This document shows, in pieces, positions 8,391 to 62,477 of a stretch of DNA of 64,000 bases. Position numbers and translations under genes: made by a program. The notes under the pieces were generated by a model. It saw only the letters and a list, made by a program, of their open reading frames with translations. It did no database searches and was not told the origin of the DNA. The stretch's first letter is position 1. Each line of letters opens with the position of its first letter. The DNA is from a virus (taxonomy: Duplodnaviria > Heunggongvirae > Uroviricota > Caudoviricetes). The stretch is from the IMG/VR virus record IMGVR_UViG_3300031707_004017, one strand, 5' to 3'.

Positions 8391-10178
8391 TCAATTTGTT
8401 ACAATGTCGCTAATATCATACGCATCGACATCAATACTGGTACCCGCATCAATGTATACATCTGTTACAAAATTTAAATTTACATCATATTTTGATATCT
8501 TTTTCCTATCTACATTATACGTTAACAAATCACCATTATAATCTTCTTTAAGCCATCTAACAACCTTTGATATTTTATTAGAAGCGCCAACACTTTCATA
8601 CGATGAATTAACTTTTATAATTCGTTGACCATTATTAAGATACAAATATCCGTTAGAATGATAAACCATTCCATAATATATTTGTGGTAATTCACCTATA
8701 ATTGATCTATTTATAAACATTGAAAAATTTGCTGACTCAGTGGTCTCATAAACATCTAAACCGGCACCCACAACTAATATTTTATTTACATCAAATCCTC
8801 TACAAATAGCAATCGGTTGTCCCTTTAAACCACCTATAGTGTGTAAATTATCACTTGTTATAATATTAACCAAATTGAAATCTAATTTCTGAATTCTAGT
8901 ATAATCGTTATTAAACACGCCAACAACATAAAGACAATCGCCTGCTCCAGAATCATGAATCATTATTCTATAAGGCCGACCAATTGTTGTAACAGTACTA
9001 TATTCAGACACGTATAGTAAACTCGAATTAACCAACTTAATAATACGACTATTCAACGAGTCACAAATATAAACATTATTTGAATTAACAGTAATACCTT
9101 GTGGAAATTTTAACATTGTATTATCCGAGCCTGCTTCGCCATACAATCCGAATTCAATACCCGTGTATATAGCGGGTATAACATTTGATTGCAACTGCTT
9201 TACGACGTGTCTCTTTGTTCGTTGTGCTACATATAGCATATTGACTGTTGTAGATCCCCAAACAGACAAAGTATCGCCACCCACCTCACCTGCCATTACA
9301 AAGGCAACACCATTATAACCCAATATTCTTGATATACCAAGAGCTTCAGGATAAGGTGCAGAACTAACAATAGCAAATGGATCCGTCGATGGGTCAAGAA
9401 GTGATATTGTCCAAGGTCCATACCTTGGGGAGGTTGCATACAATAAAGTGCCATCAAACCACATTTGATTCGAACTAATCGATCTATAATCAGTACCAGG
9501 AGCTTTATGCCCATTCGATCGATCTATAAGTCCTAAATTACCAGTTCCGGGATATCGTGAAATAAATAAATGGCCATAACCACCTCGTAATCCATTATTA
9601 GAAGAGGGATACGAACTTCCATTACTTCCTAAAGCTGGTGGAGGGCCATCTGATACCGATTGATAATATAAATATGATAAATTACCATAATAAAACGCAT
9701 TTATGGCATATGGCTGCGGTAAAAGATTGGGGGTGTTTCCTCTAACATCTATAGATCTACTTCCTCGGTAAGTAAAAGAAGATCCATCGAATGTTAGTAA
9801 ATATGCAGTTCCGGTTCCAGGTCCGCCACCACCAGAAACAGCGGATAGAAATAATATTCTGTCGCCAGGATTAGTAACTGCAAAATAGTTGGCACTACCA
9901 ACTACAGAGCGGGCAATCGACCCAACCTCTGCAAATAAAGACCCGTTGAATGTATACGCCTTGAAATATGATCCCTCAATACGGAAGAGGTAACTCCCAT
10001 TATAAAAAATTGTTGAACCACCCGGAACTAGATATTCTGCAACAAGATTCAGTGTAGAACCCGTCCACTGATAAGCATGCATACCTGTGCTATCATTAAT
10101 AATAAGATAACCTGAATTATCTATTGTTGCATTACCGAAAGGAATAGATGTTGTGCTATATAATTTTAAAAAGGCCAT
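8391..10178 (-). CDS. NHL-repeat beta-propeller protein (595 aa), receptor-binding/fibre paralog 1 with extra N-terminal domain
   Basis: NHL-like motif YICDSLNSRIIKL; internal YVAQRTKRHVVKQL matches N-termini of the two downstream paralogs; conserved C-terminal DVYIDAGTSIDVDAYDISDIV; SD GAGGA. Confidence 0.8.
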   Translation of the reverse strand: MAFLKLYSTTSIPFGNATIDNSGYLIINDSTGMHAYQWTGSTLNLVAEYLVPGGSTIFYNGSYLFRIEGSYFKAYTFNGSLFAEVGSIARSVVGSANYFAVTNPGDRILFLSAVSGGGGPGTGTAYLLTFDGSSFTYRGSRSIDVRGNTPNLLPQPYAINAFYYGNLSYLYYQSVSDGPPPALGSNGSSYPSSNNGLRGGYGHLFISRYPGTGNLGLIDRSNGHKAPGTDYRSISSNQMWFDGTLLYATSPRYGPWTISLLDPSTDPFAIVSSAPYPEALGISRILGYNGVAFVMAGEVGGDTLSVWGSTTVNMLYVAQRTKRHVVKQLQSNVIPAIYTGIEFGLYGEAGSDNTMLKFPQGITVNSNNVYICDSLNSRIIKLVNSSLLYVSEYSTVTTIGRPYRIMIHDSGAGDCLYVVGVFNNDYTRIQKLDFNLVNIITSDNLHTIGGLKGQPIAICRGFDVNKILVVGAGLDVYETTESANFSMFINRSIIGELPQIYYGMVYHSNGYLYLNNGQRIIKVNSSYESVGASNKISKVVRWLKEDYNGDLLTYNVDRKKISKYDVNLNFVTDVYIDAGTSIDVDAYDISDIVTN

Positions 10179-10180
10179 TT

Positions 10181-10723
10181 TTAATCCTCAAAGTGAAACT
10201 CTGGAACCTCGTATCTCTTTTCTTCAAATTTTATTGGATTACCTTCTGAATCATAGAGCCTTTTACTACTAAGCATATAATGCTCATAGCTATTAGGATC
10301 AAATACCTTTTGCAATCCCTGATCAAAACCAACTTCCAGTATTTTCTTTATGGTATCACAACAATTATTAGACCCTATCATACAATCCATGCAGGTTTCA
10401 GTAAAATATGGGAAACCAGACTCCATCTCTGGTATGTACTTTAGATACACATCTGTATCCAGGTACAGTAGATTAGGAATTGAAACTGCTTTATTAAATC
10501 GTATGGGATCTGTTATATTCATAAATGTCGATGGGCCAAAATCCAGATCCTCCACAGGTGTATCAAAATATTTCTGAACATCAGAATTGGTCATTAATGT
10601 AAATGTATGACCACCAGCAGCTGCTAGTTCACGAGCCCTGCTTATACACTCTACCCTTTTATCCCGTGCAGGATCAGGATATGCTTTGATAAAAAGATCT
10701 ATCATTAAAACATTTAGATTCAT
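10181..10723 (-). CDS. hypothetical protein (180 aa)
   Basis: ORF between NHL paralogs; contains YLDTDVY (DxD-like) but no confident family assignment. Confidence 0.55.
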   Translation of the reverse strand: MNLNVLMIDLFIKAYPDPARDKRVECISRARELAAAGGHTFTLMTNSDVQKYFDTPVEDLDFGPSTFMNITDPIRFNKAVSIPNLLYLDTDVYLKYIPEMESGFPYFTETCMDCMIGSNNCCDTIKKILEVGFDQGLQKVFDPNSYEHYMLSSKRLYDSEGNPIKFEEKRYEVPEFHFED

Positions 10724-26200: not shown

Positions 26201-26862
26201 TTAATTATTTCTCCCGTTTTATACGACCAAAATAATAAATCTAGCTCATCAAAATCTAATTCGTATCGTTTTGCAAAATCTTTCATAATGAGTTCAACTT
26301 TGCAATATTCTTTTTTATTACATGGTTTTTGCACGTTACAACCTAATAAATTAAGCATCGAAATTATGTGCTTATCAAGAATCGCAAAGCCCTTGAACCC
26401 GATGTTTCTAAGAAAATGACTACTTTCTTTGTAACCAATACCACATAAAAATTTAGCAAGAAATTCGCGTAAAGCAAGACCATCGTATTGATCAAATATT
26501 TTTCGTACATCAAGATCACAATAACCTTTTAAAAAATGTCGTGTTCTAACAATGTAATTAGCCCTTGACCTCGGAAATCTATACACGCCTTTTAAGCACG
26601 TCGATATATCTTTTTCATTGCCTAAAAACAACGTGTCGTCATCTATAACACTAACAGCTTTCATCGCCATTTTAGCGCTAGCGTTAGCTGTCAAAATACA
26701 AAAGATTAATTCTTGAAATAATTGTTTAGATGAACCTTTACCTATAACTTGAAATTCATTCAATCGTTTTTGAATCGCAGATTCTACACTAACATAATAC
26801 TGCCTCAAGTCATTAACTGTAGCAATTGTCACGGCATTATCGACTTTAATAATTTCAATCAT
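26197..26862 (-). CDS. ogg: 8-oxoguanine DNA glycosylase/AP lyase, archaeal Ogg2-type (HhH-GPD)
   Basis: LFQELIFCILTANASAKMAMKA and GIGYKESSHFLRNIGFKGFAILDKHI (HhH with catalytic Lys and Asp). Confidence 0.75.
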   Translation of the reverse strand: MIEIIKVDNAVTIATVNDLRQYYVSVESAIQKRLNEFQVIGKGSSKQLFQELIFCILTANASAKMAMKAVSVIDDDTLFLGNEKDISTCLKGVYRFPRSRANYIVRTRHFLKGYCDLDVRKIFDQYDGLALREFLAKFLCGIGYKESSHFLRNIGFKGFAILDKHIISMLNLLGCNVQKPCNKKEYCKVELIMKDFAKRYELDFDELDLLFWSYKTGEIIK

Positions 26863-27743
26863 TTACTTATCGGCCAATGTCGTTTAAAATTTATTTTTTT
26901 AAACAGCGCTGTCCGTGAAATACTTATCGGCCAATGTCGTTTAAAATTTGCCTTTAAATATCGTTGAACAACCGGATGATCTTTTAAGCGATCTCGTTGT
27001 TCAGTTATAGCATCAATATTTGTTAAGTAATTATTTTCCGTCATAATCCAGCATTTTAATATTTTATCAACATCATCATAAGTCGGAGCGCCTAATTGAT
27101 CTAAATCGCTATTGCTTACTCCTAATCCGTCAGTTGGAACAGCTTCAATACATAATTTAAGAGATTCAATTTGTTTCTCGTCTAGCAACATATTTTTTAA
27201 TATAAATTTAGAAATTTCATAAACTTCAGTTTTCCAAAGATGTTGAATCATACCATAATCGCCCCAATCACCCATGATTGTACTAAATCCTAGTAAAAAC
27301 TCCGTATAATTATCCGTGCTAAGAACCATACCTTTATTTTGAGCCGCAAGATCATACAATTTAATCATTCGCATTCGAGCTTTCAAATTACCTAATCGAA
27401 TCTTAAAAGCTACATCACTATGATCAGCTGTATCATAGTCATCTACTATTATAGGAGCAATTTGACGATAAGTATGTGATAAATCAATTTCTTTAAAATC
27501 ATGGCAAAAAGCTACTCCTGTCAAAGCTGCCCGCTGTATTTCGACTTCTGAATTTGTCGCAATAGGTATGCTACGACCTATAAGCGAAATATGTAAACAA
27601 TCGCAAACTGGTCGTGCTAATGCTGCGCAAAGCGTGCTATCAATTCCGCCAGAAATACCGATAATAAGACTTTGAAGTTTATGCTCAATTATATAGTCTT
27701 CAAGTTCTTGCCGAATATTCTTGACAACATCTTTGCAATTCAT
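26859..27743 (-). CDS. nadE: NH3-dependent NAD+ synthetase
   Basis: PP-loop IGISGGIDSTLCAAL ~35 aa from N-terminus; length 294 aa. Confidence 0.85.
   Translation of the reverse strand: MNCKDVVKNIRQELEDYIIEHKLQSLIIGISGGIDSTLCAALARPVCDCLHISLIGRSIPIATNSEVEIQRAALTGVAFCHDFKEIDLSHTYRQIAPIIVDDYDTADHSDVAFKIRLGNLKARMRMIKLYDLAAQNKGMVLSTDNYTEFLLGFSTIMGDWGDYGMIQHLWKTEVYEISKFILKNMLLDEKQIESLKLCIEAVPTDGLGVSNSDLDQLGAPTYDDVDKILKCWIMTENNYLTNIDAITEQRDRLKDHPVVQRYLKANFKRHWPISISRTALFKKINFKRHWPISK
26864..26977. repeat. imperfect 57-bp tandem duplication (2 copies) at nadE 3' end / ogg start
   Basis: acttatcggccaatgtcgtttaaaattt at 26864-26891 and 26921-26948; encodes FKKINFKRHWPIS twice at NadE C-terminus. Confidence 0.7.
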
Positions 27744-34523: not shown

Positions 34524-34605
34524 ACTGCACATCTTACAACAGTGTCATGCTAAAATAAAACACAAATGAGTCTAAGAAGTTATGAGTTAATGCCATTTCA
34601 TTCAG

Positions 34606-35790
34606 TTAAATAACTTTACTGTCTACAATCTCTCCGCGCCTCATCATCTCTCTCAATTCGTCCTTCGAATACTTCATCTTACCTTGCTCATCAAAATACT
34701 TTCTATATTCGCCCTCTAACTCTCTCATCCGCTCCCTTCCTCGCTCAATTCGATCCTTAAAAAACTTTCTTACTCCCGCAACACTCTTACTCATATTCTC
34801 GTCATCGTCTGCGACTACATGTGTCCTACCCCACTCGCTAGTCCGTATCCACTCACGTATACTATCATCACTCATACTCAAAAAAGGCTCATCATGCTCT
34901 AACAGCCTTTGAGCATTCTTATAATCACTACTGACTTGCCTCACTATACTAACTACTCTCTTAACTCTACGTTCGTCATCTCTCTTCTTTCGCTCATCTA
35001 ACCGCACATTCCTGCGTCGTTCTTTCTCAGCTCTAGCTTCATCAGACACTCTCTTCCTCACTTCTTCCCTTGGCACTTCTTGCGAACTCAAATTTATTAT
35101 ATATCGATAATGATACTCTTGTATATTATATCCACCTGCTCCAATTGCTCGAGCATGAAAGTCCCAGTCCCTCTTCTTATCATCTACTAACTTTCCCTCA
35201 AACTCAAAACCCTTTGACCCTTGCCTCACTCTACCAGACACATTAACAAAATCAGCTGTCACATATTTCGCTATCGCCTGCTTCAACTTCATCAAATTAT
35301 TCTCCCTGATCCCTTGCTTCACTCTCTCTACATACAAATCTCTCTTTTTCCTATTAATCCTAAACTCGCTCAATTTAACATTTTGAAACGGCCATACACT
35401 CGGTACGTCGTACACTCGAAATAACAACTCAGTCTCCATTGACTCTTTACCAAATATATTACTCACTCCATCATATAACGACCCTCGCACATTCAAATTT
35501 CGATCGTCGCTCTTACTGCCCTCAATCCTCTTCACACTTCCATTTATCTCTCTCTCGGCCTGATCACACAACCTCTCGATCATCGGCTCACATATGTCGA
35601 CAATCTTTTGCTGAACGCTTGTCATCTCTTTATCTTTACTACTTTCATCTCTATCGCTAATCGTACCAGTTAACTTCCTCTTTGACTTAGGATGCCGTTT
35701 CAAATATCCTCGTTGCTCCTCGTCAGATAAATCGCTCCACTTACGAGCTATCTTCAAAAACTCGACTTGTATTTGAGCTATATACTTCAT
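34606..35790 (-). CDS. hypothetical protein (394 aa), Arg/Glu-rich C-terminal half; paralogous N-terminus to 15479..16702
   Basis: Shared N-terminal domain (see 15479..16702). Confidence 0.65.
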   Translation of the reverse strand: MKYIAQIQVEFLKIARKWSDLSDEEQRGYLKRHPKSKRKLTGTISDRDESSKDKEMTSVQQKIVDICEPMIERLCDQAEREINGSVKRIEGSKSDDRNLNVRGSLYDGVSNIFGKESMETELLFRVYDVPSVWPFQNVKLSEFRINRKKRDLYVERVKQGIRENNLMKLKQAIAKYVTADFVNVSGRVRQGSKGFEFEGKLVDDKKRDWDFHARAIGAGGYNIQEYHYRYIINLSSQEVPREEVRKRVSDEARAEKERRRNVRLDERKKRDDERRVKRVVSIVRQVSSDYKNAQRLLEHDEPFLSMSDDSIREWIRTSEWGRTHVVADDDENMSKSVAGVRKFFKDRIERGRERMRELEGEYRKYFDEQGKMKYSKDELREMMRRGEIVDSKVI

Positions 35791-38589: not shown

Positions 38590-38820
38590 ACACCCTATAA
38601 AACAAACTACACAAATACACTGCGCGTGCTCGCGAAGAAAAACTCTACATCGGCCCTAACTATACTGCGCGTGCTCGCTGAGACTCTATCGCGTACTTAT
38701 AACTGCGCGAGCTTGCGGGAAGAACATCAACCTGACTAAGAAAACCTCTACTATTTACTCTCTCTCTCTACCACTCTATAAAACAAAACACATGCATGTA
38801 CCGCGCGGGCTCGCGGGAAG
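38590..38820. promoter_or_regulatory. iteron-like array of GC boxes (A)CTGCGCG(T/A)GCT(C/T)GCG, four copies, two preceded by CTATAAAACAAA..ACACA
   Basis: tgcgcgtgctcgcg 38621-38634, ctgcgcgtgctcgctg 38665-38680, ctgcgcgagcttgcggg 38703-38719, accgcgcgggctcgcggg 38800-38817; no long ORF. Confidence 0.5.
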
Positions 38821-39450
38821 GGACCTCAAAACGATGTTAACTAGGCTCGAGCACCACCACACGGTACACCATACTTCTATAATTTGCAACAATCGCACGA
38901 TTTACGCGCGTATACTTTCTCATGGGTCGATTGCCGTTTGTGAAGGCTCACAAAGTCGCTCACTTTTTTTCGCACTTTACGAGACTGATGAAGACTGTTT
39001 TCGTGATTCGCGAATGAAGTCACACAAATTTTTACTCGTCTACGGAGCAAGTATCGGCCTGCAATTGCCGTCTGTAAATAGCGCATTCTGTGTCGTGGTA
39101 GACGCGATGGTGTGCTGTGCGACAGTGATTTCAGCGAGCCTTTTGTTGTCTAGTATTGGTCGAGAAAAAAATCAAGAACAGTCTGTGAGATTAGTGTGAC
39201 GGAGTAAAGTGTAGTGAGATAAAGCAGTCTAGAACAGTGGACGCGAGATAGTGAAGTAGAGATGTTTAGTTTCGAATTCGGCTCGATTTTAGTGCTATAA
39301 GAAAAGATTGCTAGTGTCATTTGTAAATTAAGTAAGGAGTGGCGAGTGATAGCGATTGTGATAATTCAGTTAGCGGACTGAGTATATAGCGTGAACAGCA
39401 GTTTATGGTCAGATACCATTTTGAGTCGTCGTTAGAAGATTTCTCGCTCT

Positions 39451-39483
39451 ATCGCGCATAAAGATCTTGACGAGTGAAATTTC
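39451..39483. repeat. degenerate copy of boundary repeat (atcgcgcataaagatcttgacgagtgaaattt)
   Basis: Aligns with 39981..40017. Confidence 0.5.
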
Positions 39484-39712
39484 TTTATTCTTCAAAGGGT
39501 TGAGTCGGTTTTGATGTCGCATTTGAAGATGAATGAAGATGATAGACAAAAAATAGCCACCTTTGTGGGGTGACTATTTTAGAATGAGTTAGTTGTTGAA
39601 TTGAGAATTATTCATCGTTCACAAAGTTTCTATTCTTGACTTCTCGATCCATGAAATAATTTCTGAATGTGTCCTTTTACATTTTCTTCAAAATTGCTTT
39701 TCTCATCATCAG

Positions 39713-39970: not shown

Positions 39971-40020
39971 TCTATAATATATCGCGCGCGTAAAGGATTT
40001 TGACGAACGAAATTGTTATC
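39970..40020. repeat. left boundary inverted repeat
   Basis: tataatatatcgcgcgcgtaaaggattttgacgaacgaaattgtt = reverse complement of 57834..57870 with 1-2 mismatches. Confidence 0.75.
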
Positions 40021-45579: not shown

Positions 45580-46503
45580 TCATGAATTCATGTCAAAAAG
45601 TGACCGTTGTGCCGGTATTATATTATGTGACAAGTGCGTTTCGGGTTCCGATCCGTCATACTGACTATATGGATTGTTCGCAGAAATGCGAACGACTTTT
45701 CCAGTGGGATTTACTGTACATCCGCGTTGCAATGATGTCACTTTCGTCGATACGACTTTCGTCGGTGCTGCTGCCCAATCAACGTCGTCTTCTTTGGGTT
45801 TGATTTCGCCTTTCCGAATAAATTTGTTTTTTGCTAAATCGAATTCAAGCAGCTCGAATTCATAAATTGTACCGAAGCTCACTTGAGGGAAAAGTCCAAA
45901 ATCGCTTTTGATGTCTAGTGCTTTCTTAAGCAAGCTTTTCGTCGATGCGAAGAATATCATATTGTGGCAATAACCTATTGCTAACGGTCGATTGTCGTCG
46001 GTCCAAAAATAAATCTTCTTTATCGTCTTATTGTAAAGAACTATTGTCGCGCTACCATTCATATTTTTGATGGCATTCTTAATGCCCTGTCGTTGGATAT
46101 ACGAAAGGATAACTTCTGAGTCGACATCTTCGCTCGTATATTTATAATTAGCGATTTTCGGCATGCGGACTGTTCCGTTATGGATTATGATCCAATCTTT
46201 GGATTCAAATGGGTGAGCATTGATGTCTTTTGTTCGACTCTCGGGAGTGGTGTTAGACGAAGCTGCACGATCATGACCTAGCACAAATCGTTCATTAGCG
46301 AGTTCAGCGATGACTCGACCTCGCTTGACGAATTCTGTTGCCGTAATTGCTTCTTTTACGATACCGAGATTGGGTGCGTAATAACCTGTAGCATCGGTCC
46401 CACGAATCTGAGTCTCTATGAGACCTTTTTCGAAGATTTTAACGAGATCAAGATTGGTTTCTGTCTTAATGGTCGGTTTTATCCAACCAAATATTCCACA
46501 CAT
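45580..46503 (-). CDS. class II glutamine amidotransferase (Ntn hydrolase) domain protein, stand-alone
   Basis: MCGIFGW N-terminal Cys nucleophile, RGTDATGY, GHDRAASSNT...NAHPF, IIHNGTV: full GATase-2 motif set; no fused synthetase domain. Confidence 0.8.
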   Translation of the reverse strand: MCGIFGWIKPTIKTETNLDLVKIFEKGLIETQIRGTDATGYYAPNLGIVKEAITATEFVKRGRVIAELANERFVLGHDRAASSNTTPESRTKDINAHPFESKDWIIIHNGTVRMPKIANYKYTSEDVDSEVILSYIQRQGIKNAIKNMNGSATIVLYNKTIKKIYFWTDDNRPLAIGYCHNMIFFASTKSLLKKALDIKSDFGLFPQVSFGTIYEFELLEFDLAKNKFIRKGEIKPKEDDVDWAAAPTKVVSTKVTSLQRGCTVNPTGKVVRISANNPYSQYDGSEPETHLSHNIIPAQRSLFDMNS

Positions 46504-46560
46504 CCGCGCCTCCTATATATTTAATCAAACTATTTTGCATAGATGGACCATTCTCATTGC

Positions 46561-47229
46561 TTATTCTTCAGAGTCACAACGAACTGTTGCAGTCCCGTCC
46601 AACCGTAATTTCATCTGCTTCACAGGATTCGCTGCTCGAATTAGTTTGAGCATTTTCTTTTTATCTGAATTTTCCCAGACTTGTTTCCAATACTTAGGCA
46701 TTGACTTCTTCAACACGTTCATCATCTTTTCCGTTATCGGCTTACCGGTCAAAAACCATTTGGCAAAGCTGCACAAAATGTGACCGTCGTGGCCAGTAAA
46801 ACCGACATTGTTTCGAATCGTCGTCATTTCGGTCTGTTGTTCAGCAATTGTTTGGTGGTTGAAAATAAGCACAAGCGCTTTCGTAATCCACCGGGGATCA
46901 GTGCGGAGCTTTTTCTTAATGAACTCCTTGATTTCATCTTGTTTGATCGTGTGGAAGAGGTCCCAATATTCTTCCCAATCTTTCATGAAATTGAACGCGT
47001 CATCGATATTATCTTGCCATGATGACTGCTCTGATAAAGCGATAAAGTCAGCACCAACACCGTGCTTTTCTTGATATTTCGTCAACGGCATGTTGACCGT
47101 TATACGCGGTTGGTCGAAGACTAATTCCGCCCTTAAAAAGGCCGCATACTGTCTGAGTTCATCGATAGTTTTCATGATAACCAGGTTTCTATGCATTAAG
47201 TACAGATCTCGCGTTTGCATGCCGCTCAA
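46561..47229 (-). CDS. hypothetical protein (222 aa)
   Basis: ORF track. Confidence 0.55.
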   Translation of the reverse strand: MSGMQTRDLYLMHRNLVIMKTIDELRQYAAFLRAELVFDQPRITVNMPLTKYQEKHGVGADFIALSEQSSWQDNIDDAFNFMKDWEEYWDLFHTIKQDEIKEFIKKKLRTDPRWITKALVLIFNHQTIAEQQTEMTTIRNNVGFTGHDGHILCSFAKWFLTGKPITEKMMNVLKKSMPKYWKQVWENSDKKKMLKLIRAANPVKQMKLRLDGTATVRCDSEE

Positions 47230-47554
47230 TATATGACTGTTGACAATTCATTTCTTCGGCGACTTTTTTGTCGTATTCAATCTTGAGAGAAGCCAGTCGG
47301 TTTGGATGGTTCGCGATTTTCTGTGTGCATTCTTCGACTTCTCGCAGCGCTGAATATCTTGAGTCAGCGTAGACCGAGTAGCCGCCGGATGATTGTCCCC
47401 GACTGAGCGGGTCCGGAGGTTCTCTCACCAGCGTAAAATGTGCGCTGGAATATTTGATCCGAATCTCTGCTAGTTGCCGTTTAACAGCTTCTTTGTCCCA
47501 GCTGTAGATGCCGGTGAAGCTGAGTCCTTGTTCGTGTGCCTTTTGTTTTGTCAT
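47189..47554 (-). CDS. hypothetical protein (121 aa)
   Basis: ORF track. Confidence 0.5.
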   Translation of the reverse strand: MTKQKAHEQGLSFTGIYSWDKEAVKRQLAEIRIKYSSAHFTLVREPPDPLSRGQSSGGYSVYADSRYSALREVEECTQKIANHPNRLASLKIEYDKKVAEEMNCQQSYIERHANARSVLNA

Positions 47555-47754
47555 AAGTCACCACTTTCCAAGCAACCGCGCTCGTACAATGACATCGTCT
47601 CTTCAATTTGGGCCTGTTCGTCCAGATTTACATCGGCCAATCGCTGCTCCATCAAGTCCTTTGCCGTATCAAGGACATCGATCTGCTCTGGAGTATAGCA
47701 ATGGTCAAACGACGTTGAACCCTTCCTCGCAAAATCATCGGCTAAATGCATCAT
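47551..47754 (-). CDS. hypothetical protein (67 aa)
   Basis: SD AAGAAGGAGGATAAG before ATG; downstream of conserved element. Confidence 0.45.
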   Translation of the reverse strand: MMHLADDFARKGSTSFDHCYTPEQIDVLDTAKDLMEQRLADVNLDEQAQIEETMSLYERGCLESGDL

Positions 47755-47796
47755 TTTCTTATCCTCCTTCTTAATAATATAATCAAGTAATCTGCA

Positions 47797-47975
47797 TGTG
47801 CGAGCTCAAAATATGACCGTTTAAGTAGTTGATTTCTATAGACTTATAAAACTTACTATTCAAACACATAGAATATCGTCAAACGACAACGGACATATTT
47901 TGAGCAGTCAATGATTTCAGAGCCTTATGAGATTATCTCAGATTAGGTTTATGACAAGAGGTATAAAACCATTAC
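47797..47975. promoter_or_regulatory. conserved upstream element copy 2 (includes AAGTAGTTGATTTCTATAGACTTATA at 47823..47848)
   Basis: 26-nt block identical to 50999..51024; shares GGTATAAAACCAT and TCAGATTAGG with copy 1. Confidence 0.6.
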
Positions 47976-48029
47976 TAAAGATTTTAAACTAATCGGAGTG
48001 CTTTAGATACGTTTTAAATTCGATGGGGG

Positions 48030-48479
48030 TTAAACGGTCTTATTTTGAACTTGCAAGTCAGTACGCTCTTTACGTGCCTTACACCAGTCGCCGCTCACAA
48101 TTCGTTCGTAATGTCCGTTTTGGAAATGTTTTCCACCAATATAAACCCAAACTCGTTTTCCAGATTTCGTCGTCGCTTTCTTCCTTAAAAACAAATCGTT
48201 CGTATGATCGTATCTCAAATGATATCCTTCAAAATGGTCGAGAGTGCCAATGACATGACTGTAAGTAGTCTCATAAACTTCACCAACAACCCGGTCTTTA
48301 TTCGATTGAGAAAAACTGATATAAGGATAAGCCCAGTTAGCACTAAAAAGCTTGCCTCGAATTGAATCATAGCAGATGAATGTTGCGCCGCTTAAAAGAT
48401 TAGAACGACTGTCAGCTTTCCTAAGAGTACCATAAACGAAGATTAAGACTTTGTCATTTTTTTTCATCGAGGACCTCAT
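48030..48479 (-). CDS. gamma-glutamyl cyclotransferase-like (AIG2/GGCT fold) protein
   Basis: VLIFVYGTLRK N-terminal YGTL motif and downstream GEVYE catalytic-Glu context. Confidence 0.65.
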   Translation of the reverse strand: MRSSMKKNDKVLIFVYGTLRKADSRSNLLSGATFICYDSIRGKLFSANWAYPYISFSQSNKDRVVGEVYETTYSHVIGTLDHFEGYHLRYDHTNDLFLRKKATTKSGKRVWVYIGGKHFQNGHYERIVSGDWCKARKERTDLQVQNKTV

Positions 48480-48480
48480 A

Positions 48481-48511
48481 AAAAAGGGCTAAAATATATA
48501 GCCCCTTTTTG
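48481..48511. terminator. hairpin terminator between convergent-orientation minus genes
   Basis: aaaaAGGGCTaaaatatatAGCCCCttttt. Confidence 0.45.
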
Positions 48512-48529
48512 AACACCTTTTCTGGAGAA

Positions 48530-48883
48530 TTAAGCTGCCGCAACTTCTGTCTTGCGAGTCCGCTTTGCCTTGGAAATGTCGCCCATAACATTATTGATGG
48601 CCGCTGTAACAGCAGCCTGCACAGCTACATTGAGTTCTGCGCTTTTGGCGATTGCGGCATCGATGCGCTTGTAGAGCTTTTCCGGAACACGATTGATCTT
48701 TAGGCCTTTGACGGCGAGCTTGACTGCTTTCTTCGTCATCGACCGAGCGCGTTTGAGAGTGCGATTGAGTTTTGCGACTTTGATGACCAGCCGTTTTTTG
48801 GCTTTTTTCGCTTTGGAATGCCGCTTTTTCTTGCGATCGATTTTCAGAGATTTCGGCTTCCGTTCACGTTTTCCTGTTGCCAT
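48530..48883 (-). CDS. highly basic Lys/Arg-rich small protein (117 aa), possible nucleic-acid-binding
   Basis: KRERKPKSLKIDRKKKRHSKAKKAKKR...; contains the segment shared with 27867..28613. Confidence 0.5.
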   Translation of the reverse strand: MATGKRERKPKSLKIDRKKKRHSKAKKAKKRLVIKVAKLNRTLKRARSMTKKAVKLAVKGLKINRVPEKLYKRIDAAIAKSAELNVAVQAAVTAAINNVMGDISKAKRTRKTEVAAA

Positions 48884-48949
48884 TCATACACCTCCTTGAG
48901 TTATAGATTAAAGACAGATTTAAATAGCAGTGAAAGCTCTGTCGTGTGA

Positions 48950-49372
48950 TCAATCACCGCTGGATGCTTCGTCCTGTCGCTGATGAGCCTCTTCACGAGC
49001 GACATCGAGAATACTGAATTTCACCGATGAAGCGCCGATGGCCTTGAAAAACTTCGTCAATTGTTCTTGCACCTTTTTGGTCCCGTTCTTGCCGTGGCGA
49101 ACCGCATGGGACAGAAGGATGTTTGATTGCGCCTTGATGCCGATCCAATTCATACCGATCTTCGACAAGAACTTCGACTTTTCGACCAACTTGAGAGCGG
49201 CAATCGATGGTTCGCTGACATGTATGATGTTGGACGGCGCATGGCGCCACTCGGCCAATCCACGAATCGACAACGTCGAAACATCGACGCGTTTCGTGTC
49301 CGGGAAATTTACGGTACCGGTGAGGTTGAGACCCTCATCATCCGTATTGAATTGAAGCGTTACTTCCTGCAT
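48950..49372 (-). CDS. hypothetical protein (140 aa)
   Basis: ORF track. Confidence 0.5.
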   Translation of the reverse strand: MQEVTLQFNTDDEGLNLTGTVNFPDTKRVDVSTLSIRGLAEWRHAPSNIIHVSEPSIAALKLVEKSKFLSKIGMNWIGIKAQSNILLSHAVRHGKNGTKKVQEQLTKFFKAIGASSVKFSILDVAREEAHQRQDEASSGD

Positions 49373-49435
49373 GTTTGCCTCCTATTGGTTATGTATGTGT
49401 AATCAGTTAATCTGTGATTTTTGGTCCATTTTTTC

Positions 49436-50695
49436 TTAAGCTTCTACTTCTCTACGCATTTTTTTACGCACGCACGTTTCGAAGATTCTCGCGATATCTT
49501 CTGACATATTGGGATTCGACGCTCTCGAGTTGTAAAACACTGAATTGTTTAATGGATTCGATTGCACGCGTGAATCTTGGCTTGTAGTCGACACCAAATT
49601 CCTACGATGGATTTCGATGAAGCGCGCCCGGTATTGACTGCTTCGAGGAATTTTCAAAAATGGCCGCAATTCTTTACTGAAATAAATCGTGTTCGGTCTT
49701 AATCGGATATCCCGTGAAAGCTGTAATTGCCACGGTGTGTAATCGCCAAGGGGATAGATTCGAACTTCTGATACTGCAAACCGGCAGACTTTGAAAACTG
49801 TCTCCTGTTCGAATTCGTTCTCCCGATGAATTATCTTTAACTGGCAAATCTGTAATTGAATCCTCTCCGATCCCCGACGACTGCGACGGCTAGTTGCAGT
49901 CACATCCGATTGGATTAAATTGGGATTAGGATTAGTCCACAATTCTATACAATTAGGATTGTCCAATCGGTATGTTTTCGAAAATACGATTCGCTTGAAA
50001 TTCGCGATCTGAGTCGCATAATAGGATTGTTCCGGTCCTGATTCCGGTACGAGCATCGCATATTCGCGCTTCCTCGCGACTCGTTTCGCAGTAATGAGGT
50101 GATCGAACGCAGTCGGTTTTACTTGCCACATCTTAGCGATCTGGTATGCGATTGCCAGCACCGATTCTGCTAAGACGGGATCAGTGATCCACGACGGCGG
50201 CGTCCGATATTCGAAACCATGAGGTTGCATTCGCACATCGCCCGGTTTTCCATAAGATTGTCCGCTCCTTTTCGCACCGGGCACTTTTTTCAATCGTAAA
50301 CCTAGAAAATAATCGAGAGTCGTGATTAGTCGGCCTTGATGATTGTTACCAAAATTTGTTTGCCGACGGCGTCGACCATGATCATGGCTACTCCAAAAAG
50401 AATCCCAAGACATTCCAAAATGGATGTGCCCACCAGTAGCCTCGTGATATTGTTCACCGCCGCCGCATACAATCTTTATCTGGGGATGATGAGTTTTTAC
50501 ATGATGGAAAAGGTGCCTGAGGTTTTCGACCACTTGAGTAGGCGTTCCCGGCGCTGGCCGCATCTCACCGACACGGTTACCGTGATCCGACCCAACTTCA
50601 CCATACCGACTCTGATAACTGATATTACATAAAATACTTCGATTTTCTGGACCGACCACCATAAATTCAGGATCACATCCCAATGTCAATGGCAT
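49436..50695 (-). CDS. glutamine synthetase-fold amidoligase (GCS2/Amidoligase_2-like)
   Basis: N-terminal strand TLGCDPEFMVV (metal-binding acidic pair), GEMRPAP, and TGGHIHFGMS (GS-like HxH motif). Confidence 0.6.
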   Translation of the reverse strand: MPLTLGCDPEFMVVGPENRSILCNISYQSRYGEVGSDHGNRVGEMRPAPGTPTQVVENLRHLFHHVKTHHPQIKIVCGGGEQYHEATGGHIHFGMSWDSFWSSHDHGRRRRQTNFGNNHQGRLITTLDYFLGLRLKKVPGAKRSGQSYGKPGDVRMQPHGFEYRTPPSWITDPVLAESVLAIAYQIAKMWQVKPTAFDHLITAKRVARKREYAMLVPESGPEQSYYATQIANFKRIVFSKTYRLDNPNCIELWTNPNPNLIQSDVTATSRRSRRGSERIQLQICQLKIIHRENEFEQETVFKVCRFAVSEVRIYPLGDYTPWQLQLSRDIRLRPNTIYFSKELRPFLKIPRSSQYRARFIEIHRRNLVSTTSQDSRVQSNPLNNSVFYNSRASNPNMSEDIARIFETCVRKKMRREVEA

Positions 50696-55330: not shown

Positions 55331-55601
55331 GCTTCGCTATTTCTCTATGTTTTCTATTCTTAACAAGCAATAGAGAACGCGCGCTCGCACGCGTTAAACT
55401 CATAAGTCATCTATTCTAAACGAAATTCATTCTTAAATCTTCTCAATATAAAATCCTTCTATTTACCTTTTACTTTATCTTCCTTAAACTCTCGACACCC
55501 TTCCTATATTCTCTTAACTTTTACCAACTTTTTATATACTAAATTATCAATGTCTACGTGTTTCAATATGATTATTATTAATGAGTGGTAAAGGAGTTTT
55601 T

Positions 55602-56522: not shown

Positions 56523-57803
56523 AAAGAAAAAACATGCTATTCGACATCAATAGAGCACGAATTACCAGCCATTGCGTCGGCAATGTAGCTTCACCCGGTT
56601 GCGTAGACGTTGCACGCAATAAGCCGATTGAAAGGATTTTATATGTCGCTTGCCAATGAGTTCAATGAGTGGTATCGTAAAAGTGTTTTTACTACATCTA
56701 AGGGCGGGAATACTCGGTTTAATAAGTTGGTCAAGCGACTGGAATCTTTGGAGTCGCGGCCTACAGTTCGCCCGCAGCGGGCCGCACAGGCAAAGGGTAA
56801 AATTACATTGCCTGCTTGTTAAGCCGAAACGGGCAATGATGCTATGTATCGAATGAATAGTTCCGATTACCATACTTTAGTGTATGTTAAATGGCTCGAA
56901 ACTAAAGTAGAAAAATTTACTAACAGCGCCATGCCAAAATGCTCGTGTGGCAAAGAGGGCTATGCTGCGCTTTGTAAGTCCTGTTATGGTGATTGGCTTC
57001 AGTGTAGTGCATAGCAGCACTTCGGCATTGCTCAACCGTGGATTTATTCACGGAGGTTGTAAATCGCCATTAATTTTTGTGAGATACTCACATCTGAAAA
57101 AACAATACTAATTCGACATCAATGGAACAAACTACGATTTTAGGAGCTTAAAATGAAGCCATATCTTATTCAGCGCGGTACTTTTAGAACGATTCCAGAT
57201 CAGGAAATTGCTGGTCTGGATTCCCATTTATATCCAGGTGCTGCCGTGTACCAAAAGAGATTACCTAATGAGGATCCTGCGAGAGCAGATTGACCTTAAT
57301 ACTCGACAATAAACCTCTCTCAATTTCACATTTTTACCTCTCTACTCTCTTATAACATTCTCACAAAGTAAACTAAACTCCTTCTCTCTCAACGCTTTAC
57401 ATTTTTACCTCTCTACTCAATCTATCGGTCATCGCAGTTCTATCACTCACTCAAACACCTATTACTACTCGTAAACACCGACTATCTTTTGTACTCATCT
57501 TATCGTGACTTCTAAAACACGAAAACATTATCGGCCACACTAGCGCGAGATAGCCTCTAAATTTATATTACCCTCTGCTCGAGTTTTACTCGTGCTAATG
57601 GTAATCTTACCCAAGCCACCTCTAATTACACATTTGTAAACTGCTCGCAGAATCTAACCTTAAAAACAATATTGCCCTCTCACAACTATCTCAAAATGTG
57701 GCTGTATCTAACACTCACTCAAATCTCATAATCACGCTTAACATCTTAACGGCCCTCACTTGTCTCTAATAAATTATCACAAGTAAACCACTCGTATCAA
57801 GTT

Positions 57804-57870
57804 CCTTTACGCGCGCGATATAATGGGGACATGAACAATTTCGTTCGTCAAGATCCTTTACGCGCGCGAT
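57804..57870. repeat. right boundary inverted repeat (two direct copies of CCTTTACGCGCGCGAT plus GAACAATTTCGTTCGTCAAGATCC)
   Basis: Reverse complement matches 39970..40020. Confidence 0.75.
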
Positions 57871-58013
57871 TTTAAAAGCCGTCAAGTTTTTACAAGCAGA
57901 CGAGTGAAAGTTACCAAGAAGCACCAGCCGCGGGTCGTGAGCGCGTGTGCCTCGGGCCGTGAGAAATTTGTCGAGGGCCTACATCTCGAATACCTACCAC
58001 ATTGCTGATTAAT

Positions 58014-58040
58014 TTCGGCAGTAGCGCGGACGTTGGCCAG
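58014..58040. repeat. left flanking direct repeat of the 11-bp array (ttcggcagtagcgcggacgttggccag)
   Basis: Matches 58478..58505 (ttcggcagtaacgcagacattgggccgg). Confidence 0.6.
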
Positions 58041-58370
58041 ATATTGGCCAGATATTGGCCAGATATTGGCCAGATATTGGCCAGATATTAGCCAGATATT
58101 GGCCAGATATTGGCCAGATATTAGCCAGATATTAGCCAGATATTAGCCAGATATTAGCCAGATATTGGCCAGATATTGGCCAGATATTAGCCAGATATTA
58201 GCCAGATATTAGCCAGATATTGGCCAGATATTAGCCAGATATTAGCCAGATATTAGCCAGATATTAGCCAGATATTGGCCAGATATTAGCCGGATATTGG
58301 CCAGACATTAGCCAGATATTAGCCAGATATTGGCTGGACGTTAGCTGGATATTGGCCGGATATTGGGCGG
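58037..58370. repeat. 11-bp tandem repeat array CCAGATATT(G/A)G, ~24 exact-length copies plus ~6 degenerate
   Basis: Read directly: ccagatattgg ccagatattgg ... ccagatattag ...; unit length equals one helical turn; no spacers. Confidence 0.9.
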
Positions 58371-58477
58371 CCTTTACTTCATCATGCCACCTTAAGGAGC
58401 TGCTCGGTTACCTTGTACTGTTTCTGTATCCAGAAGGCTTTGAGCCGAGATTTGGCAATAATGCGCATGCCGATCAA

Positions 58478-58505
58478 CTTCGGCAGTAACGCAGACATTG
58501 GGCCG
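58478..58505. repeat. right flanking direct repeat of the array
   Basis: See 58014..58040; followed by degenerate units gagcggacgttagcc. Confidence 0.6.
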
Positions 58506-58897
58506 GACATTGAGCGGACGTTAGCCAAAACTCCATGGAAGTCTTTTTTGGTCATTTACATCGTTCATGTCGTTAGTGTGTAGTTTAAATTGGTTATAAA
58601 TTTGATCTTTGATGAGTTATAATGAGTTATGATCAAAATGATGTTTATATGAGTTAGTGAGTTTAGTATAGGGTTTGTTAAGTGAGTAGTGTAGTTTGGG
58701 AGAGTGGTAGGTGGGAGTGTGTGATAGAGAGATTATAGTGATATTTATACTAGTATTTGTTTGTTAAGAATGAATTTTTTAAAGATCTTTTTTGGTAATG
58801 CTATGTTTGAATTTTAGTAGTGAGATTAAAGAGTAGGAAAAAAATAGCTACTTTGTTAGAGAGTAGCTATTTTGTTATTGTGTTTTGAGTGATATTA

Positions 58898-59347
58898 TTA
58901 TTCGTCGCTGAGTTCTTCTTTGTAGTCGTCGTATTCGTTTAGTATTTGTTGTGCGTGTGGTCTTTGATTGTTTTTGTCCAGAATTTTTGGAATTTTGGGT
59001 GGTTGATGAGTGCTTTTGTTTCGTCTGTTGAGATTGTTTTCTGCTAGAGTTTGTAAATTTTGTTGTTCAGAGACTTCAAGTGCATCGTTGAAAGTTTTGT
59101 ATAGTTGTAGTTGTTTTTGTTAGCGAGGTATGAGATTTTTGAATGTTGATTTGGGTACGGGTTTTGCGTCGCCGACTTCGTAGAAGAAGTTGTCTATACC
59201 AGAAGCGCCGGGTTCGCCTTCAATGCCTGATGTTTCGTCTTCAATGTATTGATCGACTTTAGATTCAAAGTCAGTTGGAGTAGGTTTTTTGGGTGTTGGT
59301 GTTGATTTTTCACCAGTGATGTCTTCAATTAGTTTTTCAATTTGCAT
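58898..59347 (-). pseudogene. 149-codon reading frame interrupted by a single in-frame TAA at 59120..59122
   Basis: ORF 59120..59347 (75 aa) followed in the same frame by 73 further sense codons (QKQLQLYKTFNDALEVSEQQNLQTLAENNLNRRNKSTHQPPKIPKILDKNNQRPHAQQILNEYDDYKEELSDE) with no Met at all, ending at TAA 58898..58900. Confidence 0.5.
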
Positions 59348-59370: not shown

Positions 59371-59655
59371 TTAATTTCTTGTATTGCGGGGGTTATCACT
59401 GTTCATGTTATCACGTTTGATGATGTTTTTTGCATGAGATTGAGTTGTGTTGATTAATTCGTCGATTTGTTTTGATTTGTTAGGGTATTGTTTTTTGAGG
59501 TGTTTGGATTGTTCGTTAGCGTAGTTTGAGTTCCAGTTTCCATACAGTATACGTATAGATAAAGTAATAATCAATTTGCGGGTATGTGAGAGAGCGTGTT
59601 TTAGTATGCCGCAACCGATGTCTACCCTGACAACGTTGGGTATGACATGTTTCAT
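59371..59655 (-). CDS. hypothetical protein (94 aa)
   Basis: ORF track. Confidence 0.3.
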   Translation of the reverse strand: MKHVIPNVVRVDIGCGILKHALSHTRKLIITLSIRILYGNWNSNYANEQSKHLKKQYPNKSKQIDELINTTQSHAKNIIKRDNMNSDNPRNTRN

Positions 59656-60474: not shown

Positions 60475-60960
60475 CTACATTAAAACGATACCGCTACGAT
60501 GCTTAGACTGACAACCGTTAGGACACTCCATGTCACGACCGCAAGCAGGGCATGGCGTACTTTGTTTGTTGGTTGTCTGTTGAGCGAGTGCGGCAGTTTT
60601 CAGAGTTTGCCAAGCCTCATCACCTATCGGGCCTAATATTCTTAACATAGCAGACTTTTCAATAAAATCAATAGCTTCTTGTGGTGTCATGGCAAACTCC
60701 TTGCCATTGCACTTAGGGTAAATGTCAACCTTGCGTTGTTGCGCGGCCCGCTGCGGGCGAACAGTGCGGCCCGTTTCCTTAATGTTAAGGCAGCAGCGCA
60801 TCAACCGCCGCGTTAAATAACCTAATTCCCGCGTATCCATACTATCCACAAAATCATCACCACATTGCAAATTCATATATGACATGTTATTTGGCCGTTG
60901 ACCAATAACAACCAGACGATAATTAGAACAATCAAACCGATATTGTCTTTGCGCTGCCAT
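60475..60960 (-). CDS. small Cys-rich protein, EAWQTL family paralog (161 aa)
   Basis: GDEAWQTLKTAALAQQTTNKQSTPCPACGRDMECPNGC. Confidence 0.5.
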   Translation of the reverse strand: MAAQRQYRFDCSNYRLVVIGQRPNNMSYMNLQCGDDFVDSMDTRELGYLTRRLMRCCLNIKETGRTVRPQRAAQQRKVDIYPKCNGKEFAMTPQEAIDFIEKSAMLRILGPIGDEAWQTLKTAALAQQTTNKQSTPCPACGRDMECPNGCQSKHRSGIVLM

Positions 60961-61913: not shown

Positions 61914-62477
61914 TTAAGAAAGGCTTTTTGTATCGATTGATTTCCATACGAAAGCGTCTTGACTATATGATCTTGCTATATTCCTATTAGACATGACGTT
62001 TAGGACTATGCCGAGATTGAACTGTATCTTTATTTCTTTTCTATCAATAGAGATAAATTGTAAGTCCCCGTAGCTCACGATAAGATACCCGGATTTATTT
62101 AGTCTTTTTACTAATGTAGAAGCCATATCTTTGGCACGCTCATGGATTCTATTATACACGACTGCCCATAAGATATCACGTGTATTTTTATGCGCTTGTA
62201 ATCCAGGTAACACCATAGACACTGTGTAGCGTGGTATTTTCATTATGCCGTAATCTCCGCCTATATAGAATCCTTGTTTTTTTGAGTTTCTGTATTTTGG
62301 GTGAATTTCGACCCACACTCCTTTATCTGATTCAGGGAAAATAGTAGACCTTTTGTTTTTAGGTCTGTAGTAGAAAAGTACAGGTCCGGGAGTGTCATAG
62401 TAACAACCATCGGAGTTCACAAGATCTGTGTGATATGCTACTATTTTGTGAGTTGCTCTTTTTTTAAGATTCATCAT
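61914..62477 (-). CDS. hypothetical protein (187 aa)
   Basis: ORF track. Confidence 0.5.
   Translation of the reverse strand: MMNLKKRATHKIVAYHTDLVNSDGCYYDTPGPVLFYYRPKNKRSTIFPESDKGVWVEIHPKYRNSKKQGFYIGGDYGIMKIPRYTVSMVLPGLQAHKNTRDILWAVVYNRIHERAKDMASTLVKRLNKSGYLIVSYGDLQFISIDRKEIKIQFNLGIVLNVMSNRNIARSYSQDAFVWKSIDTKSLS

Follow-up and report, generated by a model that had tools for sequence, protein, structure and literature searches.

An 11-bp array at a convergent gene junction

The locus described here lies in a window of 64,000 nucleotides, the whole stretch of DNA that was analysed, from a tailed virus of the Caudoviricetes (IMG/VR record IMGVR_UViG_3300031707_004017), and it is a convergent junction at which a plus-strand operon ends at 57293 and a minus-strand operon ends at 58897. 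Between the small plus-strand open reading frames (ORFs), which reach 57293, and an extended minus-strand gene, which comes down to 58897, a span of about 1.6 kb (57294-58896) is non-coding. An earlier note made from the sequence had described a gene-free stretch of roughly 2 kb at this place; the stretch exists but is shorter, and one gene caller leaves 2.6 kb empty. The span has three parts, namely a left tract that is nearly free of G on the plus strand, a GC-rich core, and a right tract that is nearly free of C on the same strand. The core, an island of about 50% GC (57.83-58.56 kb) in a genome of 37% GC, houses a tandem array of an 11-bp unit, and the features that surround it are collected in Table 1.

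Table 1. Features of the array locus and its borders, in window coordinates.
Feature	Position	Strand	Description
Left tract, G-free and rich in C, T and A	57294-57795	plus	no ORF in any frame; CTC words enriched; resembles a Rho-utilisation (rut) site in the plus sense
Two 23-nt direct repeats, TT(C/T)ACATTTTTACCTCTCTACTC	57325-57418	plus	71 bp apart in the left tract; family D6, 96% identical
Two promoter-like boxes (TCCTTTACGCGCGCGAT, then TATAAT or TTTTAA)	57795-57870	plus	directed toward the array
GC-rich unique part of the core	57871-58002		23% AT at 57921-57960; GC island of the type found at the sister locus (see text)
Leader copy 1, TGCTGATTAATTTCGGCAGTAGCGCGGACGTTGG	58003-58036	plus	6-N6-6 inverted repeat; leads straight into the array
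11-bp tandem array	58036-58365	plus	30 units of GCCAGATATT(G/A), no indels
Spacer from array to second leader	58366-58467		102 bp; no significant folding (z = -0.09 and -0.41)
Possible 57-aa ORF	58382-58555	minus	overlaps the mini-array and ends at the array edge; reality uncertain
Leader copy 2 and three degenerate units (GCAGACATTGG, GCCGGACATTGA, GCGGACGTTAG)	58468-58524	plus	perfect 6-N6-6 inverted repeat TGCCGATCAACTTCGGCA
Right tract, C-free on the plus strand	58560-58896	minus	G-free and rut-like in the minus sense, the direction of the right operon
Bidirectional hairpin terminator AAAAAAATAGCTACT...AGTAGCTATTTTGTT	58838-58876		inverted repeat I2 and terminator scan; immediately beyond the stop codon of the minus-strand gene
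Last gene of the right-hand operon, acidic protein	58897-59347	minus	frame broken by one TAA at 59120-59122

The array is real and of the size that the earlier note had given, about 30 copies: Tandem Repeats Finder (TRF) places it at 58036-58364 (period 11, 29.9 copies, 92% matches, 0% indels, consensus GCCAGATATTA), and anchored counting gives 30 units, 25 of which read exactly GCCAGATATTG or GCCAGATATTA, the final units being degenerate. The A variant makes up 14 of the 25 perfect units. As a 12-mer with at most one mismatch, the unit has 29 matches in the window against 0.38 expected, a number that none of 100 shuffles reaches; chance cannot account for the array, and no other array of comparable score was found by TRF in the 64 kb. 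The unit length is not divisible by three, stop codons occur in all frames of the array, and the long late genes of the phage are intact under the standard code; a coding sequence and a case of stop-codon recoding were both rejected. The 9-mers of the unit occur 12 times outside the array, about 10 occurrences being expected, and there is no signal for the unit as a dispersed operator or for restriction-site avoidance.

Each G variant forms a TGGCCA palindrome, repeated every 11 bp, and the unit ends are CCA and TGG (CCA-N5-TGG). B-DNA has about 10.5 bp per turn. With an exact period of 11 bp, each unit on relaxed B-DNA is rotated by about 17 degrees against the one before, which adds up to about 1.4 turns across the 30 units; the earlier proposition that all copies share one face of the helix holds for neighbouring copies, which are in phase, but not for the array as a whole. 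The intrinsic curvature of the array is not unusual under a wedge model, which provides weak evidence only.

Variation in copy number, which the earlier note had anticipated, appears as a difference in length between two short-read assemblies. The order of the variants is GGGGAGGAAAAGGAAAGAAAAGAxxAGxxx in the window (30 units) and GGGGAGGAAAGAAAAGAxxAGxxx in a contig of the European Nucleotide Archive (ENA; 24 units), in which the block AGGAAA is missing. The two arrays thus differ by a clean block of 6 units (66 bp), and the flanks are 100% identical, with 0 mismatches over about 18 kb (about 18,000 positions). The G and A variants are grouped in blocks of about 5-6 units.

Two leaders of 34 nt (58003-58036 and 58468-58501, family D3) are 82% identical, and both carry a 6-N6-6 inverted repeat (TGCYGAT...TTCGGCA) that is followed by repeat units, 30 after the first and three 11-12-mers after the second. 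They correspond to the direct repeats of about 27 bp that had been said to flank the array; such repeats are present, but they are 34 nt long and do not bracket the array tightly, the second leader standing about 100 bp beyond it at the head of its own three degenerate units (58491-58524). The edge units at the right end of the array (GCTGGACGTTA, GCCGGATATTG) resemble units of this mini-array (GCGGACGTTAG, GCCGGACATTGA). Right-edge and mini-array units are of the GGAC(G/A)TT type, from which the central unit, AGATATT, differs by GC-to-AT transitions only. The centre of the array is homogenised and its right edge is degenerate. The array has the characters of a variable-number tandem repeat (VNTR), namely head-to-tail units of constant period, a copy-number difference (between short-read assemblies) and a homogenised centre with degenerate edge or seed copies, and it looks young and dispensable.

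Upstream of the array, the core carries a 37-nt element, ACAATTTCGTTCGTCAA(G/A)ATCCTTTACGCGCGCGAT, which is present at 57834-57870 (+) and again at 39981-40017 (-), 18 kb away and 97% identical, with weaker copies at 57795-57819 (+) and at about 39445-39475 (-). The element is followed by a TATAAT-like -10 hexamer, and the copy at 39981 fills a 45-bp gap directly upstream of a gene on the same strand; the element may thus represent a promoter that depends on an activator, or a box bound by a protein. The -35 regions of the boxes are poor matches to sigma-70. Neither strand of the unique part at 57871-58002 folds significantly (z = 0.31 and 1.74). Rfam gave no match at gathering score in the 64 kb, and one match at chance level (E = 0.58); a structured RNA was rejected on the Rfam result and on the folding z-scores of the unique core parts (0.31, -0.09, 1.74, -0.41). 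The possible 57-aa ORF is not called in the ENA contig and matches no family. Pentamers of the CGCG/GCGCG type are concentrated in three non-coding zones, which are the array locus, a sister locus described below and a zone at 55.3 kb.

Nearly G-free flanks and a recurrent module

The switch in strand composition reported in the earlier note is borne out by the base counts. On the plus strand, G amounts to 3-9% over most of 57300-57800, with 15% at 57500-57599, and C to 2-4% at 58600-58900 and 6-17% on to about 59600. The flanks of the array are the only two blocks in the entire 64 kb in which a base falls to 5% or less over 200 bp. The left tract also contains two 23-nt repeats (Table 1), for which the rest of the window has 0 matches, 0 being expected by chance. 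Whether the switch is a global extremum of cumulative skew had been put forward as a check, and it proved not to be one: the cumulative GC skew has a local minimum at 57810, its lowest point within the assembled 71 kb, which is only about half of a genome that measures 130 kb or more, lies at 69695, and the skew tracks gene strand. The cumulative AT skew peaks within the array because the genes switch there from the plus to the minus strand. The pattern of skew and genes therefore identifies the locus as a junction of convergent transcription.

The published description of rut sites calls for 78 nt with a C/G ratio above 1 and a C every 11-13 nt, followed by a GC-rich pause hairpin (RhoTermPredict, PMC6407284). 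Both flanks, each immediately beyond the end of an operon that runs toward it, are untranslated and C-rich in the relevant sense, and their C/G ratios lie far above what these criteria require (PMC6407284): 26 in the left tract (57286-57427, plus sense) and 33 in the right tract (58572-58800, minus sense), the latter being the maximum of the window. Together with a value of 24 at 55394-55559 (+), these are the top three 78-nt values on either strand of the 64 kb, and a ratio of at least 10 is reached in only 0.2% of such segments. Each of the two flanks also contains a chain of 7 Cs at a spacing of 11-13 nt. The right tract is followed, within 150 nt downstream, by a perfect hairpin, TGCCGA-N6-TCGGCA, at 58470-58487; after the left tract come GC-rich boxes without a clear hairpin. 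The layout is unchanged by reverse complementation, and whichever side the core is entered from, the strand read 5' to 3' is G-free. The third nearly G-free tract, at 55394-55559 (+), is preceded by two CGCG-rich islands (55279 and 55378) and runs into a 313-aa orphan gene, whose second ATG there has a clear AAGGAG Shine-Dalgarno sequence.

What the flanks have in common is composition and CTC-type words on the G-free strand, not sequence, and it is therefore composition that is kept. A degenerate inverted repeat was rejected, the alignment score of 28 being on a par with shuffles (mean 23.6 +/- 2.7). As a long RNA stem they reach -139.5 kcal/mol, equal to composition-matched shuffles (z = -1.5, -0.4 and +0.7), so that pairing in one particular register is not expected. 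Paralogy of the arms was likewise rejected, since tblastx finds only one shared GC-rich element of 27 nt. A 27-nt, GC-rich and partly palindromic element (core GTTCGCCCGCAGCGGGCCGC) occurs in identical form at 56762-56788 (+) and 60740-60766 (-), inside ORFs on either side of the array and in inverted orientation, both copies encoding TVRPQRAAQ. Depletion of G as a general rule of 3' untranslated regions was rejected, the mean G content downstream of genes being 17%.

The three-part layout is also found where no array is present. At 38.5-39.7 kb the window has a second region poor in genes, here called the sister locus, in which a G-poor tract interspersed with four GC islands (ACTGCGCGTGCTCGC...) is joined by a GC-rich core and a C-poor tract, and the hairpin AAAAATAGC...GCTATTTT of this locus, at 39552-39590, is similar to the terminator hairpin of the array locus. 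A 17-kb contig (L020), reached through P0002, a remote homologue, carries a homologous gap at 4106-4790 with the same three parts. Over 103 nt its core is 74% identical to that of the sister locus, including ACTTCTATAATTTGCAACA, and the GC-island motif is kept. A 135-aa ORF at 38792-39199 is not conserved in L020, and for this reason the sister core is probably non-coding. The tracts of the sister locus and of L020 have the same polarity as the array flanks and are weaker (C/G 2-9). Neither place contains a tandem array. The recurrence of the module without the array is a direct observation, and it follows that what is conserved is the module, to one core of which the array has been added in a particular lineage.

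L020 is the only syntenic relative that was found, and its similarity is to the sister locus and not to the locus of the array. Searches with megablast and blastn against phages and plasmids returned no homologous locus, and exact scans for two tandem units found none in viral contigs. Across 596 Gb of genomes and the JGI metagenomes only unrelated arrays of 2-7 copies appeared, in three bacterial metagenome-assembled genomes (MAGs; 2.5-7 intergenic copies) and in three metagenome contigs (about 2.5 copies). Given the abundance of 11-bp micro-arrays, the arrays of the unit in public data are compatible with chance. In an Alteromonadaceae MAG (contig L007, 3585-3661), an intergenic array of 7 copies of the same 11-mer stands about 10 nt upstream of a YggL-like gene, and in an Acidobacteriota MAG (L008, 3478-3537) an array of 5.5 copies lies between anti-sigma-factor-like and ECF-sigma-factor-like genes; both are probably coincidental. 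Scans for a 17-nt box and for the conserved core motifs gave one chance match or none. The contigs found through RlaP-like, 187-aa and 161-aa proteins have single gene cassettes in common with the window, and contain neither the array nor skewed blocks.

The phage genome around the locus

The window comes from a tailed phage that is very divergent, and a few of its structural ORFs match baseplate, tail and Hoc-like PHROGs. It has no DNA match to deposited phages and contains no tRNAs. The genome measures at least 130 kb, because the window bridges two contigs of one ENA sample (100,367 and 30,006 bp). Within about 10 kb of the array all neighbouring genes are orphans in Pfam, PHROGs and NCBIfam, and none of their ORFs carries a DNA-binding, replication, partition or packaging signal in these collections; signals of an initiator, ParA, ParB, ParM, ParR, TubZ or a terminase are lacking among the array neighbours, and the large ORFs scanned across the window yielded no recognisable terminase. 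The two largest neighbours retrieved nothing among PDB sequences. The largest, of 313 aa, is an orphan for which an exhaustive HMMER search yielded a single remote homologue, and for which the AlphaFold model (pLDDT 35) is unusable.

The last gene of the right-hand operon begins as an acidic ORF of 75 aa, which is followed by a single TAA and by 73 further stop-free codons in the same frame, ending ...NEYDDYKEELSDE. The part downstream of the TAA has no start codon of its own, and the ENA annotation covers 59120-59347 only. The region is identical in both assemblies; the TAA reflects either stop-codon readthrough or a very recent nonsense mutation.

A minus-strand cluster at 45580-50695 encodes a glutamine amidotransferase (GATase), a GGACT-like protein and a COOH-NH2 ligase, the last without a relative in viral contigs. 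This combination is associated with hypermodification of phage DNA bases, and given this base-modification-type cluster, the DNA of the phage may be modified. A 187-aa gene (61914-62477, minus) has 86% DNA identity to a gene at 10007-10540 of an otherwise unrelated 31.8-kb phage contig (L022), and homologues with 48-81% protein identity in several other contigs, the context being different each time; by sequence comparison it behaves as a shuffled gene cassette. In a 183-kb relative (L011, 9398-13448), an RlaP-like gene pair lies 2.3 kb from a homologue of the window gene at 26859-27743. In the window itself the gene pair (63.4-64.5 kb) and this gene (26.9-27.7 kb) stand about 36 kb apart, with both non-coding loci in between, and the segment is therefore plastic or rearranged. 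A stretch of 1.1 kb at 34551-35680 has 9% G and 32% C on the plus strand; it falls in a region where a 394-aa orphan gene (34606-35790, minus), part of which has a homologue in L020, has a coding strand that is unusually rich in G and poor in C. An 87-bp tandem repeat (3941-4121, 2.1 copies, 78% matches) lies within a baseplate-like gene of 1479 aa.

Interpretation and comparison with known systems

We tentatively propose, with a confidence that falls a little short of even, that the array is a slippage-born, length-variable minisatellite (VNTR), housed in the GC-rich core of a module that recurs in this phage lineage, serves regulation or termination, and here occupies the place where two operons converge. 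Slippage during replication, or unequal recombination, would have generated it from a short seed and would go on altering it. This seed would have consisted of the 34-nt leader with its small inverted repeat and a few units of 11-12 nt, an unexpanded copy of which would be the one left 100 bp downstream. One decayed variant of the short seed may then have expanded to give the central unit, a course of events that the blocks of G and A variants and the 6-unit indel would fit. Each flank, read along the incoming transcript, would form an extreme Rho-utilisation-like tract, long and untranslated, and the GC-rich core with its small hairpins would be the pausing zone after the tracts. The flanks would in this way stop converging transcription and insulate the core, which holds the two promoter-like boxes. 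We infer the slippage origin, the dependence on Rho and the lack of a sequence-specific function of the units. The array would be dispensable for the module, because the sister locus and L020 have the same layout without it.

Several points weigh against this proposal. Both genomes are short-read metagenome assemblies, which are unreliable for sizing a perfect repeat of 330 bp, and the difference between 24 and 30 units could partly be an effect of assembly. An indel-free period of 11 bp, a partial dyad symmetry and an inverted-repeat leader are the expected look of a cooperative protein-binding array, and to our knowledge 330 bp of useless DNA is rare in phage genomes. As for the flanks, a G content of 3% goes far beyond known rut sites and is not general downstream of the genes here (mean G 17%). 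The left tract of L020 is placed upstream of a gene on the minus strand, so that the logic of the incoming transcript fits five of the six tracts. Finally, the proposed dependence on Rho presupposes that the host has a Rho factor.

The earlier note had seen in the array a possible replication origin, packaging (pac) site, partition site or junction of genome termini, none of which finds support here: the array is internal in a 100-kb contig, it has no recognisable cognate genes nearby, and the sister locus and its counterpart in L020 are arrayless. The broader idea of a helically phased platform, on which a phage or host protein would bind cooperatively with one monomer or dimer per 11-bp unit, is unlikely in our view. 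The resulting filament or wrapped complex could, for example, act like a centromere, silence or insulate, or serve as a titration sink, and the flanks would prevent transcription from displacing the protein. Such a platform would profit from the TGGCCA palindrome of each G-variant unit and from the CCA...TGG unit ends, yet the A variant, present in 14 of the 25 perfect units, destroys the palindrome. The exact period of 11 bp over 30 units with zero indels, the same 6-N6-6 inverted-repeat leader ahead of each array and a core apparently insulated from transcription are also in keeping with it; however, the copy number differs by 20% between otherwise identical genomes, and the sister locus and L020 do without the array. 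No recognisable gene for a binding protein and no partition ATPase lie nearby, single unit sites elsewhere in the genome do not exceed chance, the predicted intrinsic curvature is unremarkable, and 30 copies are at least three times the number in known centromere arrays. The 11-bp iterons of plasmid R1 parC, each of which binds one ParR dimer (PMC2241845), nevertheless provide a precedent, and Apl/Cox-type proteins are described as using direct repeats one helical turn apart (PMC7498355). A further hypothesis, which we consider quite unlikely, would make the three-part module (G-free arm, GC-rich core, C-free arm) a kind of phage cis-element that has not been described before. Each arm would then carry a signal specific to one strand, acting for instance as an obligatory insulator that loads Rho, or as a track for a helicase or an R-loop, and the core of the present locus would have evolved the 30-unit phased array to nucleate a large nucleoprotein assembly, be it an origin, a site like a centromere or a structure that organises the architecture of the genome.

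A replication origin, with the repeats as initiator or architectural sites, the boxes giving a priming or activating transcript, and the arms as unwinding or helicase-loading zones, is very unlikely. The polarity of the locus is origin-like (C above G on the left and G above C on the right of the plus strand, with the local cumulative GC-skew minimum at 57810), but this notch is made by the two blocks themselves, the 71-kb minimum lies at 69.7 kb, and the gene junction is convergent, not divergent. The AT-richest 40-bp segments (75-85% AT), at 58.72-58.80 kb, stand beside the core, and two tandem promoter-like boxes are directed into it; with regard to iteron origins, this AT-rich stretch is present, but no initiator gene is recognisable nearby, no helicase, primase or polymerase gene either, and there is no global skew extremum over the 71 kb. 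The 11-bp unit and the 30 copies are atypical of iterons. The 37-nt element is shared with a second locus, and phages with two origins are known, such as SPP1 with oriL and oriR; the conserved sister module, however, lacks the array. It is highly improbable that the array marks physical genome ends or a pac site, with termini joined by the assembly across a terminal repeat. T7-like phages are known to have repeat arrays adjoining their terminal repeats, and here the genes on either side are directed at the locus and two Logan contigs end nearby, at 58062 and 59477. The array is nevertheless internal both in the 100-kb ENA MEGAHIT contig and in the window's own assembly, the break at 58062, 27 nt into the array, is the one expected with k=31 on entering a repeat, no terminase was recognised among the large ORFs scanned, and the contigs of this genome of at least 130 kb break elsewhere. 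The contig that stops at 59477 (L003, SRR9617949) is 100% identical to the window and has no repeat at that point; low coverage or population variation are possible reasons for its end. Very improbable, too, is a non-coding RNA of about 1 kb (roughly from 57830 to the hairpin at 58841-58873), in which the 30 repeats would be a sponge or scaffold for an RNA-binding factor. The boxes lie upstream of the array and share its orientation, a perfect TATAAT is present in one of them, their homologue at 39981 precedes a gene on the same strand, and at its far end the unit is closed by a plus-strand hairpin that resembles a terminator, but the -35 regions of these candidate promoters match sigma-70 poorly, no Rfam family is matched and the unique core parts fold no better than shuffles. 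The ancestral units contain GGA and the amplified unit AGA, which makes a sponge of the CsrA type unlikely; for the intergenic tandem repeats of Borg elements, on the other hand, a role as regulatory RNAs has been proposed (PMC9879509).

Measured against what the earlier note had itself named as pointing to neutral satellite DNA, namely no skew extremum, no enrichment of read ends and an array that is absent or variable without phenotype in close relatives, the evidence on skew and on the array leans to satellite DNA. If the minisatellite proposal is true, the array itself is ordinary and fast-evolving; it would be a potential strain marker, and the mis-sizing of the array by short-read assemblies would be a warning. 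The setting is of greater interest: G is almost totally excluded over several hundred transcript bases, and this exclusion is mirrored around GC-rich cores and recurs in the genome and in a relative. We know of no more extreme natural arrangement of rut-like tracts. If the flanks do act as rut sites, this would suggest that the phage lineage depends heavily on host Rho, or on some comparable factor with an affinity for loading onto unstructured RNA, for the partitioning of early transcription. Were the array to bind a protein, no helically phased iteron array known from a phage would come near it in size. The array itself is of modest interest; what is unusual is the pair of mirror-image arms, nearly devoid of G, around GC-rich cores, an arrangement that is conserved in a relative.

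Among known systems, the Borg elements, with their intergenic tandem repeats proposed to act as regulatory RNAs, offer one comparison (PMC9879509). As in Borg repeats, the array consists of near-perfect, head-to-tail, non-coding units whose length is not divisible by three (PMC9879509); it has partial or seed-like flanking copies, varies in copy number within or between near-identical genomes, and is confined to a single locus, relatives having no such array. It differs in belonging to a tailed phage and not to an archaeal element, in being one large array as opposed to pervasive repeats, in a unit that is not enriched in A, and in its place within a specific conserved three-part module. The parC site of plasmid R1 consists of two sets of five 11-bp iterons around the par promoter, and binds one ParR dimer per iteron in a higher-order complex (PMC2241845). 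What the present locus has in common with it are direct repeats of 11 bp that fall into two clusters with a spacer between them (here 30 and 3 units). In R1, however, parR and parM are immediately adjacent, whereas no recognisable centromere-binding or motor gene is present here; among the ORFs within about 10 kb, the adjacent ParR ribbon-helix-helix and ParM genes that characterise type II partition were not found. The copy number is, moreover, variable here, no curvature is predicted, and the analysis shows no promoter between the clusters.

The PeSL cassettes of T4-type phages are described as mobile, short conserved promoter/stem-loop motifs that are repeated between small orphan early-type genes in plastic regions (PMC2839356, PMC4122927). 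The recurrence of the 37-nt box at 57834 and 39981 and of the GC islands, together with neighbouring genes that act as shuffled cassettes, is similar to this arrangement. The motifs differ, only a few copies occur in the 64 kb here, and PeSLs are not known to go with tandem arrays or G-free tracts. The closest parallel for the flanks is given by Rho terminators and their rut sites (PMC6407284), which likewise consist of untranslated, C-rich and G-poor RNA with regularly spaced Cs downstream of operon ends. The RNA of the flanks is expected to be unstructured, and it is followed by a GC-rich hairpin on the right and by GC-rich boxes on the left. Unlike rut sites, which measure about 80 nt and of which few in E. 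coli reach a C/G of 3, the flanks extend over 340-500 nt with a C/G of 26-33, and they form a mirror-image pair around a GC-rich core.

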